From an uncultured delta proteobacterium (GTDB lineage: Bacteria; Desulfobacterota; Binatia; UBA9968): a stretch of DNA of 64,000 nt. Both the position numbers and the translations under genes were made by a program. Within the stretch, counting starts at the first letter, position 1, and every line of letters begins with the position of its first letter. The stretch lies in assembly GCA_963816145.1 (NCBI GenBank), contig CAWFJP010000004.1, positions 64,001 to 128,000 of the forward strand, read 5' to 3'. A model generated the notes under the pieces. It did not search any database. It was not told the origin of the DNA and saw only the letters and a program-made list of their open reading frames with translations. Shown piece after piece: positions 7,874 to 19,786 of the stretch.

Positions 7874-8133
7874 TTGGGAGCCTCCTTCTTTGTCGCCGGA
7901 GCGGACTTTCGCGGCAGGGAATTCTTGGCTTGTTCGCCCAGCGACTCGGCTCGATCCAGTTCACGCATCATTTCCAGCTGCTTGATCATTTCCATTTCGC
8001 GCAAGAACTCGAGCATCTTGAGCATCTCTTTGTCCGGCGGGTCGGCTTGCTTTGTCGCGCCGAATCCGACGGATGCGGCGATCAGGAGAATGCCCAGTGG
8101 TAACCAACGGTAGGTCATGGTGCGGACCGTCAA
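7870..8133 (-). CDS. Small secreted protein carrying an anti-sigma-tail-like motif (start TTG 8133 or ATG 8118)
   Basis: 4-nt overlaps with both neighbours; hydrophobic signal; LEFLREMEMIKQLEMMRELD. Confidence 0.75.
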   Translation of the reverse strand: MTVRTMTYRWLPLGILLIAASVGFGATKQADPPDKEMLKMLEFLREMEMIKQLEMMRELDRAESLGEQAKNSLPRKSAPATKKEAPK

Positions 8134-8648
8134 GCCGCGTCGTTGGCCGAGTTGTCCATGGCTTCCAATAAGTCCAGGTTATCCAATACATCCATGGCGC
8201 GGAAGAATTCCAAGTTCTCCGCCACCGGCAGCGCTTCGGATAATTCATCGTCCGGTAGATCATTCTTGCCGTTCCATAAGCCGCGATTGAGGGTGAACGT
8301 CAGAGCCATGGCCAGCACCGCGACAGCGGCCAGAGCGGACAGGTAGCGCGGTTGAAAAATCGCGGTTAAATCTTGCCACCAAGGTTTATGGTCAACGGCG
8401 GCGTCGATTTTGTGGCGCAGCTCGCGGCTATAATCCATCCAGAACTCATGCGGCGGCGTGTCGGTTTTGACCGTTAACGGCATGAGCGTGGTAAGTTCCT
8501 TCAGGTAGTTCGAGCAGCCGGCGCAGTCGGCGAGATGAGCTTGCAGCCGTTCACGCTCGCCGCCGTCGAGGTCGCCGAAGTGAAACAATACAAGATCGGC
8601 TTCCAAGTCTGTGCAGGCAGTCGCCGCGGATTCGATTGGTTGCGCCAT
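8130..8648 (-). CDS. zf-HC2 (ZAS) membrane anti-sigma factor
   Basis: N-terminal Cys plus HLADCAGC zinc motif, one TM, short periplasmic tail; GGAGGAG RBS. Confidence 0.88.
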   Translation of the reverse strand: MAQPIESAATACTDLEADLVLFHFGDLDGGERERLQAHLADCAGCSNYLKELTTLMPLTVKTDTPPHEFWMDYSRELRHKIDAAVDHKPWWQDLTAIFQPRYLSALAAVAVLAMALTFTLNRGLWNGKNDLPDDELSEALPVAENLEFFRAMDVLDNLDLLEAMDNSANDAA

Positions 8649-8656
8649 AACTCCTC

Positions 8657-9322
8657 CTAGATCAACTCCGCCAAGCTTTGCCGCAGCGTGGTGACGGCGC
8701 GGTGCAGGTGTACTTTTACCGTGCCCTCGGCAGTTTCCATGGTTTCGGCGATTTCTCTGATCGAAAGCCCTTGGTGGTTCTTTAAAATAAATGCCGTGCG
8801 CTGTTTGGCCGGCAAGGTTTGCAGCGCGGCGTCTACTTTGCGCGAGAGCTGCCCCGCCAACACATGCTGTTCCGGCGCCAGCGGTTGAGCCGGGTTATGC
8901 GACGGTTCCATTTGATTCTCGATGTTCTCGTCAAATTCACCGGCGGATGTGCGCTTGGCGCGCCGCTTGTAATCGAGACAGACGTTGACCACGATGCGGT
9001 AAAACCAGGTGTAAAAGCTCGAGCGGCCGTCGAAGTTCTTCAAGTAGGTAAAAGCTTTTAAGAACGCTTCTTGGGACAAATCTTTGGCTTCCTCGCGATC
9101 TCGGGAGAAGCCAAAAGCGATATGGTAGGCCTTCTGTTTGTGGCGCTCGATCAGTTCATCGAACGCCCGGCGGTCGCCGTTTTGGGCCAATGCGACCAAT
9201 TCCTCATCCCCAGAGTTCGCCAATTGGCTCGTCCTGCCTTTCGTCGCTTCACGCGCGCTCGGATCACTGTGGAGGGGGCGGCGGAAGAATTCAAGTTCTT
9301 GCGCCGCTTGCAGGCATGCCAT
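8657..9322 (-). CDS. ECF RNA polymerase sigma factor
   Basis: Region 2 (DLSQEAFLKAF...FYTWFYRIVVN) and region 4 (LSIREIAETM...GTVKVHLHRA). Confidence 0.95.
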   Translation of the reverse strand: MACLQAAQELEFFRRPLHSDPSAREATKGRTSQLANSGDEELVALAQNGDRRAFDELIERHKQKAYHIAFGFSRDREEAKDLSQEAFLKAFTYLKNFDGRSSFYTWFYRIVVNVCLDYKRRAKRTSAGEFDENIENQMEPSHNPAQPLAPEQHVLAGQLSRKVDAALQTLPAKQRTAFILKNHQGLSIREIAETMETAEGTVKVHLHRAVTTLRQSLAELI

Positions 9323-9335
9323 GTCGGCTCCCGTT

Positions 9336-9731
9336 TTAGTTTGTCACGGCGTCTCGGCGGTCGCTGCGCAGTTCCTTGCGGTCCTGGCGCCGTTCGACGC
9401 GGTCCTGATGCAATTCTTTCCTGTCGCCTTTGATCTCGACCTTGTCCTGGACGATTTCTTTGCGGTCCTGGGCGATCTCTTGTGAGCTGGCGTTGTTCCT
9501 AACGTCCCGGCGCAATTCTCGACGGTCGGCGCGCAGCTGTCTAAAGTCTTTGCGCGACTCGCGACGGTCGCCCTTGATCTCCTGACGGTCGCGGTGGATT
9601 TCCTTGCGGTCCTGTCGCAGCTCGGCATTCTCCACGGGGGTGATCTTGCTTTCCGCCGCCAGCAGCGGTGATACTGCCACGGCCAAAGTAGCGACAAACA
9701 CTCCCGTGCTCATGACCGATTTACTTGTCAT
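9336..9731 (-). CDS. Secreted heptad-repeat (xxxDRxE) coiled-coil protein
   Basis: Signal peptide then ~12 seven-residue repeats such as LRQDRKE, IKGDRRE; GGAGG RBS. Confidence 0.8.
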   Translation of the reverse strand: MTSKSVMSTGVFVATLAVAVSPLLAAESKITPVENAELRQDRKEIHRDRQEIKGDRRESRKDFRQLRADRRELRRDVRNNASSQEIAQDRKEIVQDKVEIKGDRKELHQDRVERRQDRKELRSDRRDAVTN

Positions 9732-9772
9732 CTGGAAGACCTCCGGAGTTTAGTTTTTGCTTCTCCATCGGT

Positions 9773-9800
9773 TAGACGGCCCAAACGACGGTCGGTTTAC
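9773..9800 (-). promoter_or_regulatory. Putative ECF autoregulatory promoter GTAAAC-N16-CGTCTA
   Basis: -35 AAC and -10 CGTC motifs with 16-nt spacer, ~40 nt upstream of the first operon gene. Confidence 0.7.
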
Positions 9801-10048
9801 CGGCCCGTTGAGAAAATCCAGCGGTGAATTATTCAGCGAAAATTCGCTTACTTAGGATCCCATGCAGGACCATATTAGAACTCCGATGAGGGGCTTACGA
9901 GGGCTGCTTGACGTAGCCGCGGGCAAAACCGGCATTGACCCGCCAGCGCCAAGATGCGAAAGGCAGGCGGAATCTTGGGCACAGAGCTGAATCTTGAAAC
10001 TTGTAGTCGGGTCCAGAGTGACGCAGAGTGCGGATCGGACTGTTCAAG

Positions 10049-10077
10049 TTGACAAGCCATCCGGCTTCGACTAGCTT
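10049..10077 (+). promoter_or_regulatory. Sigma70-type promoter TTGACA-N17-TAGCTT (leaderless start at 10084)
   Basis: Perfect -35, 17-nt spacer, 6 nt between -10 and ATG, no SD. Confidence 0.75.
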
Positions 10078-10083
10078 CAAACC

Positions 10084-10380
10084 ATGTCAGTTTTTGGAGC
10101 TCGAACGGCAAACGCTTTCGGCCGCGCCGCTTGCGCCGTCACTTTGCTGTTCTTGTTCTTCCTGCCGCTGCATGTTCATTTTTCGCTGTCGCCGCAGTTG
10201 AGCAACCAATGCAGTTGCTTGCAGGGCGCGCGCGCGCAGTTCGTCGTCGCCGACAAAGCTCCGACGGTTGTGCCGGTCCCGCAATTTGCGGTTCTGCTCG
10301 AACCGCAGGTTTGCGCTTGGAGTTCTACCGCATCGCATTGCCAGTATGTCCGTGGCCCGCCTCTCTCAGTAGCCGTTTAG
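10084..10380 (+). CDS. RGPP leader/arrest peptide uORF 1 (DUF2946-like, HxH/CxC type)
   Basis: 98 aa; hydrophobic segment, HVH, CSCLQG, 44 aa, RGPP; paralogous to 10918 and 19382. Confidence 0.8.
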   Translation: MSVFGARTANAFGRAACAVTLLFLFFLPLHVHFSLSPQLSNQCSCLQGARAQFVVADKAPTVVPVPQFAVLLEPQVCAWSSTASHCQYVRGPPLSVAV

Positions 10381-10467
10381 TTCGACAATTTCAGCGATAC
10401 TAGTGTGTTCTCGGTGGCGTGTGCGCAAGCCGAGGCGAGTTGTTATCTATCGAGGGAGGGGCTTGTC

Positions 10468-10902
10468 ATGAACTTTTCTGTTGTTCGGACACCGCTTGTC
10501 GTGGTGTCTGCGGCTTTTACGTTTCTGTTGTTTCTATCGGAGCGAGGTTGGGGGCAAAGTACCGAGCTTGAATCGCTGCGCGCGCTCGTCAAGGGCATGG
10601 AACAGCAGCTGCAACAGGCTTTGCAGCGCATCGATCAGCTGGAAAAAGAAAAAGGGTCGACGTCAGTAAGGGTCGAGCAAGTCGAAAAATCAATTCAGGC
10701 GGTGCAAAGCGCGCCGACGGCGCTCAATCCAGCAATCACACCGATCCAACCGCTTGTCCCGGAGCTATGTCAACGAAACTCTTCTTATTTTACCGCATTA
10801 ACAAGTATTCACCGATGGAGGCCTGAGACAAAAAGCACTCCGGTCGAGGCATCCTCTCAGCTACGCGCGGACTCGTTGAATTTGACAAGTCTTAATTCCT
10901 AG
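10468..10902 (+). pseudogene. Truncated paralog of the outer-membrane porin gene at 19787 (signal peptide plus coiled coil only)
   Basis: QSTELESLRA...SAPTALNP matches the 19787 protein; homology stops at ~10731; strong SD GAGGGAGGGG at 10452-10461. Confidence 0.75.
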
Positions 10903-10910
10903 GCTAACAA
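10882..10910 (+). promoter_or_regulatory. Sigma70-type promoter TTGACA-N17-TAACAA (leaderless start at 10918)
   Basis: Perfect -35, 17-nt spacer, weaker -10, 7 nt to ATG, no SD. Confidence 0.6.
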
Positions 10911-10917
10911 GTCGGCT

Positions 10918-11214
10918 ATGGATCTCGCGCAGCTCTCGTTTCAAATAAAGCATAGACAGCGCTGCGTCGGCGTCTTATTGCTGCTAACCGTCTTTTTCCT
11001 GCTGTTTCATTTTCACCCCGCCACAGCGTCAACCGCACAGATTAATGGCGAATGTACCTGCCTGCATGGTACCCGGACCCAAATCGGAATTGCCCCGGTC
11101 ATGGTCCAGTTACCACTGCCCGTGCTGTTAGTTAGGTATTATTCATTCGAACCTCGGTTTGTGTCATTAAATACTGTTCGTTTCCGATCCATTCGCGGTC
11201 CGCCGGTTTTTTAG
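10918..11214 (+). CDS. RGPP leader/arrest peptide uORF 2
   Basis: 98 aa; hydrophobic segment, HFH, CTCLHG, 44 aa, RGPP. Confidence 0.8.
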   Translation: MDLAQLSFQIKHRQRCVGVLLLLTVFFLLFHFHPATASTAQINGECTCLHGTRTQIGIAPVMVQLPLPVLLVRYYSFEPRFVSLNTVRFRSIRGPPVF

Positions 11215-11293
11215 TCTCTCCGTCACCGTTTATTTTTCAGCTGTTTCTTGAAGATAGGAGCCACCTCGACCGTCCTCGGTCGCCCGCGGCCCG

Positions 11294-11328
11294 TTCTCCA
11301 TCCATTGGCCCTTAGCCGATTGGAGGAA
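11294..11328 (+). promoter_or_regulatory. Hairpin predicted to occlude SD GGAGGA of the MerC-domain gene
   Basis: TTCTCCATCCATTGGC-CCTTA-GCCGATTGGAGGAA pairs by eye with two single-base bulges. Confidence 0.55.
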
Positions 11329-11333
11329 TATTC

Positions 11334-11819
11334 ATGAATCAAAATGTCTCTGCCGTGGCGCCCCGCTCGTGGATCGATGCCCTCGGCAGCACGTTTTCAA
11401 TTGCCTGCGCCATGCAGTGTTCGGTTTTTCCGCTGCTCATCGGCGTGTTGCCGCTGTTAGGTTTGGGTTTTCTCTTAGGCGACGGCGTCGAGAAAGTCTT
11501 TCTGGGAACCTCAGTCGTGCTCGGCGTCAGCAGCTTCACTTGGGGATTTCGCTACCACCAACGTTTTTACGTCTTTGTTTTTTTGGTTTCGGCGTTAGCC
11601 TTGATCGGCGTCGGACGCTTTTGGGTTGACGACCGATACGAGACTCCAATCGTCGTCGCCGGAACGCTGGTTTTGGCCGCAGGCCATTTCCTCAATCGGC
11701 GACTATGCCGTCTTTGCGCCGAGTGCGACCGCCATGGAAGCGCGTCCGGCTCCCATGTCGCAAGCCATATGAGCACTGTCTCCGTTGCCAACGAAAGGAA
11801 CAACGATCATGAAGTCTAA
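11334..11819 (+). CDS. MerC-domain membrane protein
   Basis: WIDALGSTFSIACAMQC (MerC-like CxxxC), four TMs, GHFLN, C-terminal CRLCAEC and His residues. Confidence 0.8.
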   Translation: MNQNVSAVAPRSWIDALGSTFSIACAMQCSVFPLLIGVLPLLGLGFLLGDGVEKVFLGTSVVLGVSSFTWGFRYHQRFYVFVFLVSALALIGVGRFWVDDRYETPIVVAGTLVLAAGHFLNRRLCRLCAECDRHGSASGSHVASHMSTVSVANERNNDHEV

Positions 11820-12312
11820 GTTGATATTAGCTTTACTTTGTATCGGCCTGATCTCCCTGGGTTCACCCGCGGTGCATGTCTGCCGGATTATTCCCGGCTG
11901 GAGTGCGATTACCGTTGCTGGCGCTGCCAATGCTGCGGAAAAGATTCCGTCGCTTACCTGGGATAATCTCCGCAGGCTCAACCCGCAGTCGGGCAAAATG
12001 CCGGCGGACTTGAAGAAGCACGATGGTAACGTTGTGCGAGTTCCAGGTTTTATCATCCCGCTCGAAGACAATGACCAGGAAGTTTCAGAGTTTCTCCTCG
12101 TGCCCTACCCGTTGGCGTGCATTCATGTGCCGGCTCCGCCGCCCAATCAAATTGTCCATGTGAAAATGGAGAAGGGGAAGAAGGTTCCTTTCGATTTTTA
12201 CGCGCCGGTTTGGGCGCAAGGACGGCTCAAGATTCAACACGAGCAAAACATGTACACCGACACGTCGTACTTCATGAGCGGTCTCTCGATAGAACCGTAC
12301 CGAGAACGATAG
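11809..12312 (+). CDS. DUF3299 protein (ZrgD/PA4066-like)
   Basis: VRVPGFIIPLE...EFLLVPYPLACIHVPAPPPNQIVHV; AAGGA RBS. Confidence 0.88.
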   Translation: MKSKLILALLCIGLISLGSPAVHVCRIIPGWSAITVAGAANAAEKIPSLTWDNLRRLNPQSGKMPADLKKHDGNVVRVPGFIIPLEDNDQEVSEFLLVPYPLACIHVPAPPPNQIVHVKMEKGKKVPFDFYAPVWAQGRLKIQHEQNMYTDTSYFMSGLSIEPYRER

Positions 12313-12321
12313 GAGTGAGCC

Positions 12322-12891
12322 ATGTTCTATAAGACATTGTTAATTTCGGCACTCGGCATCTTTGCGCTGGGCGTTAATAAAGGAACCGCAGCTGAACAGC
12401 GCCATGCCGAAGCTCATGTGCACGGCATGGCGGAAATCAACATCGTAGTCGAAGGCAAGAGAGTTGTTGTGGAATTCCACACGCCCTCGGAAGGTCTAAT
12501 GGGTTTTGAGCATGAAGCCAAGACTGACGCAGAAAAGAAAAAACGTGACGCGGCAATGAAAATCGTCAACCAGCGGTCTAACGAACTGATCGTTTTCGAC
12601 AAACGAAGCGCTTGCAAATCGCGTAGTGCTACAGCTCGGATCGCGCGCGGTGAGGACCACGATACTAAAGACAAAACGCACGCGGCGGAAAATCAAAAGA
12701 TCAGCGGCGAGCACAGCGAACTCCAAGCCGTGTACCAATTTGAGTGTGATCGGTCGCCGCTAGGGACCAAAGTGAGTTTTGGCGTCTCGAAGCTGTTTCC
12801 TGACATTCACGAGATCAAAGTACAGATCTTGACCGACACCAAGCAAACCGGAGTAACGATCAAGAACGACAAAGGGAACGTCGAGCTTTAA
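12322..12891 (+). CDS. zrgA: DUF2796 periplasmic zinc-binding protein (ZrgA/PA4063-like)
   Basis: Signal peptide, HAEAHVHG, GFEH, HSEL...YQFEC motifs. Confidence 0.85.
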   Translation: MFYKTLLISALGIFALGVNKGTAAEQRHAEAHVHGMAEINIVVEGKRVVVEFHTPSEGLMGFEHEAKTDAEKKKRDAAMKIVNQRSNELIVFDKRSACKSRSATARIARGEDHDTKDKTHAAENQKISGEHSELQAVYQFECDRSPLGTKVSFGVSKLFPDIHEIKVQILTDTKQTGVTIKNDKGNVEL

Positions 12892-14945: not shown

Positions 14946-15437
14946 ATGGAAAAACAAGCCGTCATTTTATTTCTGCTGTTAAGTTTGTTGCTCATCTCGA
15001 AAGGAATGAATTTTGCCGACGAATCCATTCCTGTTCGGCAACCGATTCGCGATAAGTTGGCGAACGCAGCGCGCCATTTTCTCGGGATGCCATATCGCTG
15101 GGGAGGGATGTCGGAGCGTCGCGGCATGGATTGCTCGGGGTTGGTCAAAGCGCTATTTGCCACATTACACATTGATTTGCCCAGGACTTCCCGCGAACAA
15201 TATCACGCCGGGGAAAATGTTGCTGTCGAAAACCTGCAAGCCGGCGACCTGCTCTTCTTTTCATCTGACGGCGTGACGCCGAATCACGTCGGTCTTTATA
15301 TCGGCGACAATCGTTTTGTTCACGCCGAGAAAAAAGCCGGACACGTCATCATCACGGAACTGAATCAGCCTTGGTACGTTAAGCATTTCCTGGGAGCACG
15401 CCGTATTGTGGAATCGGAAGAAGGGCGACGCACATGA
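14946..15437 (+). CDS. NlpC/P60 (C40) peptidoglycan endopeptidase
   Basis: GMPYRWGG, MDCSG, LPRTS, GDLLFF, HVGLYIG, HA. Confidence 0.93.
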   Translation: MEKQAVILFLLLSLLLISKGMNFADESIPVRQPIRDKLANAARHFLGMPYRWGGMSERRGMDCSGLVKALFATLHIDLPRTSREQYHAGENVAVENLQAGDLLFFSSDGVTPNHVGLYIGDNRFVHAEKKAGHVIITELNQPWYVKHFLGARRIVESEEGRRT

Positions 15438-19223: not shown

Positions 19224-19345
19224 CTAGATGACTCATCAACGGCCAAAAAATATGTTTCTGTTCGACTCCTCGCTGCCTGTTGTGTCATCTTTCGGAAAGA
19301 TTGATCTCAATAGCAAGTCGGTTACGGCTGCAGCGCAATATTCTG

Positions 19346-19374
19346 TTGACTTCGCGAAGCACATTCGTTAGGTT
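19346..19374 (+). promoter_or_regulatory. Sigma70-type promoter TTGACT-N17-TAGGTT (leaderless start at GTG 19382)
   Basis: 17-nt spacer, 7 nt to GTG. Confidence 0.7.
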
Positions 19375-19381
19375 AAACGGC

Positions 19382-19678
19382 GTGGTTCTTTCAGGAATGA
19401 GAAGAGGATTTTCTATTCGCCGTCTCGTTACTGCGACGACTTTAGTATTTGTTTTCTTTCTACCATTTCATTTTCATCTTTCCGTTTCCGCGCAAATCAG
19501 TAAAGAGTGCACTTGCCTCCAAGGTGTTCGAACTCAGCTGGGTGCGATCGCGAATGTTACGGCGGTCGTCCAGCAGCTTTGGATTGCACGCGTTGCCAAT
19601 CAAGCGGTTTCTATTTGGGCCGAAGACAGATTGGAACAGCAGCATGTCCGAGGGCCACCCTTCCGAGCCTCCCTGTAG
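19382..19678 (+). CDS. RGPP leader/arrest peptide uORF 3
   Basis: 98 aa from GTG 19382 (ATG 19397 is an alternative); HFH, CTCLQG, 44 aa, RGPP. Confidence 0.8.
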   Translation: MVLSGMRRGFSIRRLVTATTLVFVFFLPFHFHLSVSAQISKECTCLQGVRTQLGAIANVTAVVQQLWIARVANQAVSIWAEDRLEQQHVRGPPFRASL

Positions 19679-19786
19679 TTCTTTGTTCGAAATCCGAATC
19701 GTAAAATAACTACGTCCGTTTCCCTTCTATTCTCACCTCTGAATCATAGGAGGGTGACGGAATGGTATTGGAGGGGGGGTAGCAAA

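Follow-up and report, generated by a model that had tools for sequence, protein, structure and literature searches.

Arrest-motif codons of a small leader reading frame pair with the ribosome-binding site of the next gene: a putative family of nascent-chain metal sensors from an uncultured Desulfobacterota lineage

A stretch of 64,000 nucleotides from an uncultured delta proteobacterium (Desulfobacterota; Binatia; UBA9968; assembly GCA_963816145.1, contig CAWFJP010000004.1, positions 64,001 to 128,000 of the forward strand), below referred to as the window and numbered from its own first letter, carries a small upstream open reading frame (uORF), uORF1, whose product ends in an Arg-Gly-Pro-Pro (RGPP) motif and a short tail and which is followed, after an intergenic region of 87 nucleotides, by the start of a porin-like gene. 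We analysed the messenger that joins the two, where the codons of this motif and those right after it are complementary to the Shine-Dalgarno (SD) sequence of the second gene, together with the protein family to which uORF1 belongs. The features of the locus are as follows.

10049..10077, plus strand: promoter-like element as read from the sequence, with TTGACA at 10049-10054, a 17-nucleotide spacer and TAGCTT at 10072-10077
10084..10380, plus strand: uORF1, 98 amino acids, C-terminal end ...YVRGPPLSVAV and stop
10351..10362, plus strand: the R-G-P-P codons CGU GGC CCG CCU of uORF1
10351..10372, plus strand: 5' arm of a helix that sequesters the ribosome-binding site (RBS), by the pairs of the minimum free energy (MFE) fold, with the core anti-SD CCUCUCUC at 10360-10367
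10410..10434, plus strand: conserved inner hairpin of the intergenic region, 9 pairs, 84% of cells paired
10447..10470, plus strand: 3' arm of the same helix, made of the SD GAGGGAGG at 10452-10459, the spacer and the start codon ATG at 10468-10470
10468..10902, plus strand: downstream open reading frame (ORF) of 144 amino acids, of which only 10468-10737 is homologous to a porin-like gene of about 416 amino acids

The product of uORF1 is laid out as a membrane helix (approximately residues 6-26), H30-x-H32, C43-x-C45, an unconserved spacer of 47 residues, R90-G-P-P93, a tail of 5 residues and the stop. The promoter-like element ends 6 nucleotides upstream of the ATG at 10084, and for this reason the mRNA of uORF1 is probably leaderless; a consensus promoter scan did not flag 10049..10077, since its -10 box matches in 3 of 6 positions only. 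As judged by eye and without a count, most loci of the family have a similar layout, namely a near-invariant TTGACA, about 17 nucleotides, TAGGTT, TAGCTT or TATCxx, and then 6-8 nucleotides to the start, and the TTGACA layout also precedes two paralogs in the window, uORF2 (about 10881-10918) and uORF3 (about 19345-19382). No SD is seen upstream of the uORFs of the family, which, together with a promoter box standing so close to the start, suggests that they are translated from leaderless mRNAs. Two contigs of 151 nucleotides, from soil metatranscriptome libraries of separate studies, lie on uORF1 (10052-10193 and 10185-10330) with 1-2 differences; carry-over of DNA is possible for them.

A database search returned 30 homologs of uORF1, nearly all of exactly 98 amino acids and with identity down to 51%, and in 24 aligned sequences L22, F25, F26, H30, H32, Q38, C43, C45, G48, R50, R90, G91, P92 and P93 are invariant. 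When a profile was run against 1.84 billion representatives, 135 proteins were found at E<=0.001; among 75 diverse members H32, C43, C45, P92 and P93 are still invariant, and the 35 residues preceding R(A/G)PP have no consensus. In the set of 57 non-redundant loci described below the motif R[GAS]PP is present without exception (28 RGPP, 28 RAPP and 1 RSPP by hand count of the tails), the distance from CxC to the Arg equals 47 residues in 55 loci, and the tail after Pro-Pro has 5 residues in 41. The hydrophobic stretch of uORF1 occupies residues ~15-29, after R7 and R14. AlphaFold2, supplied with a 75-row alignment, predicts one helix at residues 6-26 (predicted local distance difference test, pLDDT, about 90) and coil for the rest, the spacer included, with no folded domain (overall pLDDT 72, predicted template-modelling score, pTM, 0.30).

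Scans of Pfam and NCBIfam gave no meaningful match for the uORFs of the window, and none of the 75 members matches DUF2946 or another Pfam family convincingly at E<=1. DUF2946 itself (PF11162) matched neither the three uORFs of the window nor uORFs in its own genome, and had matches at E<=1e-5 in 0 of 81 genomes of the order; by this hidden Markov model test the uORF1 family is not DUF2946. A language-model neighbour search led to clusters of hypothetical proteins of ~95 amino acids, one of them 54% DUF2946, which may be taken as a lead for remote kinship and no more. From a sequence profile search of the PDB came only spurious membrane-helix matches to G-protein-coupled receptors.

An earlier note on this DNA had claimed that 10360-10372 (CCUCUCUCAGUAG) pairs with 10447-10459 (CUAUCGAGGGAGG) at 12 of 13 positions, G-U pairs included, and that this stem covers the SD of the ATG at 10468. 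Both claims agree with our data: the coordinates and letters are as it gave them, two of the pairs are G-U, and the stem is composed of 8 contiguous pairs (CCUCUCUC with GAGGGAGG), an A/C mismatch and 4 further pairs. The SD stands 8 nucleotides upstream of the ATG, and the choice of this start is backed by the conserved N-termini of homologs (MNFS.V.TPL...). The stem is present in both the MFE and the centroid folds of 10340-10480 (-46.7 kcal/mol), and in a fold of 10342-10473 the helix becomes longer, 10351-10372 with 10447-10470, so that both SD and AUG lie within it; here the Arg and Gly codons at 10351-10356 are paired with 10465-10470. The 74-nucleotide loop of this outer helix is closed by an inner hairpin set. 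The hairpin at 10410..10434, in which 4 of 9 pairs are changed on both sides among 14 close homologs, draws the outer helix's two arms close to each other. By partition-function folding the SD core of the uORF1 locus is paired with the tail with a probability of 0.94, versus 0.64 after synonymous recoding. Rfam covariance models run against 9000-12500 gave 0 matches at E<=1.

For the comparison between loci, 75 of them (L001-L075) from related genomes and metagenomes were scanned. Seven have no recognisable ORF of the family (L004, L005, L017, L033, L040, L074, L075) and three records have no usable downstream start (L020, one in L067, and L068); from the 62 distinct records left, L058, whose contig stops 23 codons into the downstream gene, and 4 near-duplicates were excluded, giving 57 non-redundant loci, one of which (L030) comes from the unpublished genome G005. 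The duplex test sets the stretch from the first Pro codon of the motif (Pro1) to the stop against the locus's own RBS (-20..+3), and it misses arms that lie past an early stop, as in L030 (-5.7, but -17.4 with a 30-nucleotide window from Pro1). In the comparison with genomic Pro-Pro sites, taken from long ORFs of the window's own genome, a fixed 24-nucleotide window was applied to all loci, which controls for CCN-CCN composition. Partition-function folds extended from 30 nucleotides before the Arg codon to 20 nucleotides past the start, and a stalled ribosome was modelled by placing the P site on the first Pro codon and forcing positions -12..+15 to be unpaired. Duplex and partition-function tests, which need no alignment, were used because RNAalifold missed the long-range stem, and a cluster-level test was added because the loci are related and p-values overstate their independence.

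Over the 57 loci the tail forms with its own RBS a duplex of -15.7 kcal/mol on average, versus -12.3 kcal/mol for recoded tails (Wilcoxon 9e-8; 17 of 57 individually at p<0.05) and -13.2 kcal/mol for the same tails with the RBSs of other loci (p 2e-4; 13 of 57 in the best 5%). The difference from genomic Pro-Pro windows is larger, -16.2 versus -11.0 kcal/mol, with 31 of 57 loci in the best 5%, and the direction is the same in 24 of 29 sequence clusters (p 3e-6). The mean probability that the SD core is paired with the tail amounts to 0.63, versus 0.28 after recoding (p 5e-9); it exceeds 0.5 in 40 of the 57 loci and in 38 of the 49 with a porin-like gene downstream. By four alignment-free tests, these three and the positional scan that follows, the pairing of tail and RBS is selected at the level of the family, and chance is excluded there.

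The complementarity also has a definite position. If an 18-nucleotide window is slid along the locus, complementarity to the RBS peaks at window starts -6..+6 from Pro1 (-14.7), with a background of -8 to -9 upstream of the peak and -6 to -7 just downstream, and the median 5' arm in the family extends from +3 to +17. In several loci the helix continues into the letters that separate SD and AUG, which are specific to each locus; in L025, for instance, 12 pairs are contiguous. Between L027 and L030 the helix is kept through two base pairs changed on both sides, and in L030 the 5' arm sits 3' of an early stop codon; an arm that lies past the stop and yet is kept in a helix argues for selection on the RNA and not on the peptide tail. 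In many loci (L021, L026, L027, L072 and L073 among them) the hairpin enclosed by the tail:RBS helix is often of the type CCCUCC...GGGAGGG, that is, an anti-SD paired with an SD look-alike, a decoy SD pair.

With the P site at 10357 the modelled footprint covers 10345-10372, and the 5' arm (10351-10372) falls within it; its part from 10360 on corresponds to the A-site codon and the next ~10 nucleotides of a ribosome that holds Pro1 in its P site. In the free mRNA of uORF1 the SD is paired with a probability of 0.94 and the opening of the RBS requires 18.3 kcal/mol, which is reduced to 7.8 kcal/mol under the footprint. The family mean changes from 12.5 to 8.3 kcal/mol, with a drop of at least 3 kcal/mol in 33 of the 57 loci.

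Leaders of this kind are known from other bacteria. In SecM-secA and MifM-yidC2 the 3' codons of the leader pair with the downstream SD and a stalled ribosome melts the helix. These two leaders monitor Sec and YidC activity through pulling force and use other arrest motifs. The RNA design of uORF1 resembles theirs in that its 3' codons pair with the downstream SD; it differs in its context, which is metal transport, and in its conserved His and Cys residues, which suggest a ligand.

For the motif itself, of all arrest cores RAPP and RGPP have been described as the most robust; proteomes avoid them, and they are enriched at the C-terminal ends of small proteins, secreted or in the membrane, whose genes stand upstream of metal genes (PMC12992588). 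The window's own genome agrees with this avoidance: of the 4007 Pro-Pro sites in its ORFs of 250 codons or more, just 10 come directly after R-G or R-A. uORF1 shares with the proteins of that study (Fujiwara et al. 2025, PMC12992588) the small size, the localisation signal, for which it has the hydrophobic stretch and the predicted helix, the R(A/G)PP near the C-terminus (residues 90-93 of 98) and a same-strand downstream gene of metal homeostasis; the downstream classes given there (TonB receptors, YcnI, PCu(A)C, PepSY, DsbA, thioredoxin) differ from those of uORF1. The main text of that paper, whose supplements may list the family, contains 0 occurrences of zinc, porin, stem-loop or Shine-Dalgarno. 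Another published filter, for CutF-like proteins, combines fewer than 150 residues, Pro-Pro within the last 15, an N-terminal signal, a same-strand gene within 1000 nucleotides and a Cys/His motif (PMC9973294; Ozturk et al. 2023), and uORF1 passes it with 98 residues, Pro-Pro at 92-93, the 87-nucleotide intergenic region and HxH plus CxC; zinc occurs 0 times in the main text of PMC9973294. Our literature searches returned no paper that ties an arrest peptide to zinc uptake.

Two copper systems are among the closest known. CutF of Rhodobacter capsulatus (cutFOG), a DUF2946 protein, stalls upon copper binding, and the stall opens an intergenic stem-loop which shields the SD of cutO (PMC9973294; 10.1101/2025.02.05.636593). 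CutF and uORF1 have in common that they are small leaders, exported or sent to the membrane, and that they contain a Cys motif and, at the C-terminus, a stalling motif with prolines; in CutF, as we propose for uORF1, the SD of the following gene is masked by an mRNA helix which the stall opens. Unlike CutF, which carries CxxxC and has its anti-SD in the intergenic stem-loop, the uORF1 family has no Pfam match, carries HxH and CxC and uses the codons of the putative arrest site themselves as the anti-SD; and whereas CutF switches a detoxifying oxidase on with copper, the targets of the uORF1 family resemble zinc-type uptake genes. CruR of Bordetella pertussis (bp2923-bfrG) is a DUF2946 uORF with RAPP whose stalling keeps a copper uptake receptor on, while copper relieves the stall, the output being Rho-dependent termination (PMC9426467); its RAPP arrest was toeprinted with the first Pro in the P site (PMC12992588). 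By analogy with this toeprint, a ribosome arrested on uORF1 would have its P site at the Pro codon 10357-10359 and its A site at the next one, 10360-10362. CruR likewise heads a metal-uptake operon; its RAPP is C-terminal and at a fixed spacing from its Cys motif, its mature peptide is poorly structured, and its metal relieves arrest and turns uptake off, as proposed here. It differs in the Rho-dependent output, the intergenic region of 162 nucleotides, the CxxC of its DUF2946 domain and in copper as the metal; in the uORF1 family the conserved RNA feature is the RBS-sequestering helix and the intergenic region is not C-rich. From these comparisons the uORF1 family appears to join a CruR-like context, and probably a CruR-like logic, to a SecM-like RNA design.

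Taking these data together, we propose that uORF1 leads a metal-uptake operon, in which it acts as a nascent-chain sensor of the RAPP/RGPP type, and we would give this proposal a probability of about 0.6. uORF1 would be translated, probably from a leaderless mRNA; its N-terminal helix would insert in the membrane, leaving HxH and CxC outside while residues ~60-92 fill the ribosomal tunnel, and the ribosome would pause once its P site has reached the first Pro codon of RGPP. In the free mRNA the codons Arg90-Val97 (10351-10372) and the SD, spacer and AUG (10447-10470) would form a long imperfect helix, with the inner hairpin closing the loop and the RBS shut; a ribosome waiting on RGPP would cover the 5' arm, the RBS would open and the porin-like outer-membrane gene would be translated (with ZnuABC behind it in relatives). 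Once arrest is released the uORF would be finished, the ribosome would leave and the helix would re-form. The helix, its placement relative to the arrest codons, its conservation in the family and its locus-specific complementarity are observed; arrest at RGPP in this host is expected by analogy with CruR, CutF and SecM. Binding of a metal to the His and Cys residues may tune the arrest, and the gene context makes zinc the most likely metal. As for direction, the metal would release the arrest, since homeostasis of an uptake system needs this direction, as in CruR; the earlier note had predicted the same logic (metal absent, stall, uptake on; metal bound, release, off), to which CruR conforms and CutF is opposite.

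A number of observations weigh against this proposal, and first of all the locus is weak if taken alone. The z-score of the whole fold is -1.13, and 24 of 200 shuffles fold equally well; the tail:RBS duplex of -17.2 kcal/mol compares with -13.5 kcal/mol for synonymous recodings at p 0.145, its own RBS ranks at 0.18 among those of other loci, and the duplex lies at the 5.5th percentile (0.055) of genomic Pro-Pro windows, so for uORF1 by itself the pairing is not beyond chance. Part of the signal is compositional, because the codons for Pro, Leu and Ser are rich in pyrimidines and complementary to SD sequences in general. Among the 14 close homologs the 8-bp core is kept in 10-12 and varies by one-sided changes only, each of the five pairs beyond the mismatch fails to form in 4 to 10 of them, and RNAalifold recovered the inner hairpin and not the long-range stem, which escaped it because the 5' arm differs in register from one locus to another. 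In 11 of the 49 porin-class loci the probability of SD-tail pairing is 0.5 or less, close homologs included (L007 0.00, L054 0.13, L049 0.18), and 6 of the 8 loci of other classes, uORF2 among them, have no tail:SD helix. Under the footprint the SD stays largely paired (0.94 to 0.75 in uORF1, a mean of 0.90 to 0.77 in the family), since other pyrimidine runs replace the tail as its partner. The gene behind uORF1 is cut at 10737 in the window. The interpretation of the earlier note as a whole is thus partly supported, with comparative computation backing its structural half: the stem it expected to be favourable is in the MFE and centroid folds and has an ordinary z-score, its conservation holds as a family excess and not as compensatory change among the closest homologs, and a ribosome modelled on RGPP masks the 5' arm and lowers the opening energy, leaving the SD itself three-quarters paired.

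The same figures for the single locus, together with the truncated gene behind it, would fit a chance complementarity, in which CCN-CCN-CUC-UCA codons match a strong SD by accident and the fold at uORF1 has no function. We regard this as very unlikely: the family exceeds the recoded, cross-locus and genomic Pro-Pro controls, the complementarity peaks at the arrest codons, and 10050-10737 is 100% identical in contigs of two independent studies which carry the full gene.

A further explanation is plain translational coupling, by which any ribosome that reads the tail and the stop melts the helix without a metal-regulated arrest, RGPP setting only a constitutive dwell time or serving the mature peptide. 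It is true that most of the 5' arm would also lie under a ribosome that terminates at 10378-10380 and that the RNA statistics cannot tell a stalled ribosome from a passing one, and since any ribosome finishing the uORF opens the helix, the RNA evidence does not require regulated arrest, which counts against our proposal as well. However, the complementarity peaks at the Pro codons and not at the stop, R(G/A)PP is invariant in the family and otherwise avoided in proteomes (PMC12992588), and coupling leaves the 47-residue ruler from CxC to R and the invariant His and Cys unexplained. We consider coupling without regulation to be unlikely.

The output of a nascent-chain sensor could also be of the CruR type, with the stalled ribosome mainly shielding the transcript from Rho, termination before the porin gene as the switch and the helix as a secondary matter. 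This is what has been demonstrated for the RAPP uORF CruR in front of an uptake receptor (PMC9426467), and the operons are alike in having the uORF first and a structured intergenic region of ~90 nucleotides here. The intergenic regions, however, have more G than C in 47 of the 57 loci, unlike C-rich rut sites, a count that covers the intergenic part only and leaves room for a rut site inside the uORF; moreover the locus-specific complementarity of tail and RBS would have no explanation. A Rho switch seems to us decidedly improbable. Still less credence, indeed very little, is due to transcription attenuation, where the inner GC hairpin and a T-rich run would act as a terminator depending on coverage of the tail: some loci do have CCCTCC...GGGAGGG hairpins followed by T runs, and 7 of 57 pass a simple terminator rule, but 50 fail it, uORF1 among them, and a terminator scan found no site between 10380 and 10468. 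An intrinsic terminator was rejected on these grounds.

The gene downstream of uORF1 is incomplete in the window. By blastn the similarity of 10468..10902 to the porin-like paralog ends at ~10730 and the remainder is unrelated. In two DNA runs, each from a different study, contigs are identical to the window over 10050-10737 (0 differences) and diverge from it past 10737, running on in frame with GLVLDANVQN, which is the continuation found in the full-length paralog; as these independent contigs run into the full gene, the natural partner of uORF1 is the full porin-like gene. The junction 10737/10738 is either a strain-specific deletion, which has fused the module to the operon of uORF2, MerC and ZrgA, or an assembly chimera, and the regulatory region upstream of 10737 is intact. 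The two paralogs of uORF1 are located as follows.

10918..11214, plus strand: uORF2, 98 amino acids, ...IRGPPVF and stop, preceding MerC-DUF3299-ZrgA-ABC genes
19382..19678, plus strand: uORF3, 98 amino acids with a GTG start at 19382, ...VRGPPFRASL and stop

The tail of uORF3 (19654-19669) pairs with the RBS (19764-19780) of a full-length porin-like gene (ATG 19787) with a probability of 1.00, and the footprint lowers its opening energy from 14.8 to 5.9 kcal/mol. uORF2 has an SD-tail probability of 0.00 and an opening energy that goes from 9.7 to 9.1 under the footprint; in its intergenic region of 119 nucleotides the SD of the MerC-like gene (ATG 11334) is in a local hairpin at about 11295-11330, and in the other MerC-class loci (L019, L066, L069) the SD is likewise in a local hairpin and not paired with the uORF tail. 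The same sensor family is thus wired differently in the porin and MerC classes.

uORF3 is followed by the porin-like gene and then by ZnuA (PF01297), an ABC ATPase and an ABC-3 permease; uORF2 by MerC, DUF3299, ZrgA (PF10986) and a MacB/FtsX-type ABC pair. Among the 57 loci the downstream gene is porin-like in 49, MerC-like in 4, in 3 it encodes a 163-amino-acid protein like that at 14946..15437 of the window, and 1 has none. At ~416-443 amino acids, the porin-like protein combines a signal peptide with a coiled coil and is without a Pfam match. Judging from these gene families, the operon context points to metal uptake, with zinc as the most likely metal because ZnuA, ABC-3 and ZrgA families stand downstream.

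We may even suggest, tentatively and as something we would not yet favour, that this is the first family of nascent-chain metal sensors to respond to something other than copper, zinc being the likeliest candidate: a leaderless, membrane-anchored HxH/CxC peptide of 98 amino acids, with an exact 47-residue ruler to R(G/A)PP by which, when arrest sets in, the metal site would be located at the translocon's outer face, and with arrest codons serving as the anti-SD of an outer-membrane channel gene that heads a ZnuABC operon. The three such sensors of this one genome would be wired to three different uptake modules, porin-ZnuABC twice and MerC-DUF3299-ZrgA-ABC once. Among stalling leaders the family would be an unannotated relative of SecM and of the copper sensors CruR and CutF. 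Post-transcriptional metal sensing by a nascent leader has so far been shown for copper only, in CruR and CutF, and if our proposal is true the principle would reach zinc-type uptake systems, an uncultured lineage and a protein family unnamed in any library. One stretch of 22 nucleotides would both encode the arrest motif and close the RBS of the next gene, a fixed peptide ruler would tie the sensor residues to the arrest point, and the three paralogous copies in one genome allow the wiring to be compared with and without the tail:RBS helix.

Upstream of the locus, 9336-9731 on the minus strand encodes a protein of 131 amino acids with a signal or anchor segment and long charged repeats of the DR(K/R)E(I/L) type, which matches no family and adjoins an extracytoplasmic function (ECF) sigma factor (8657-9322) and an anti-sigma factor (8130-8648).

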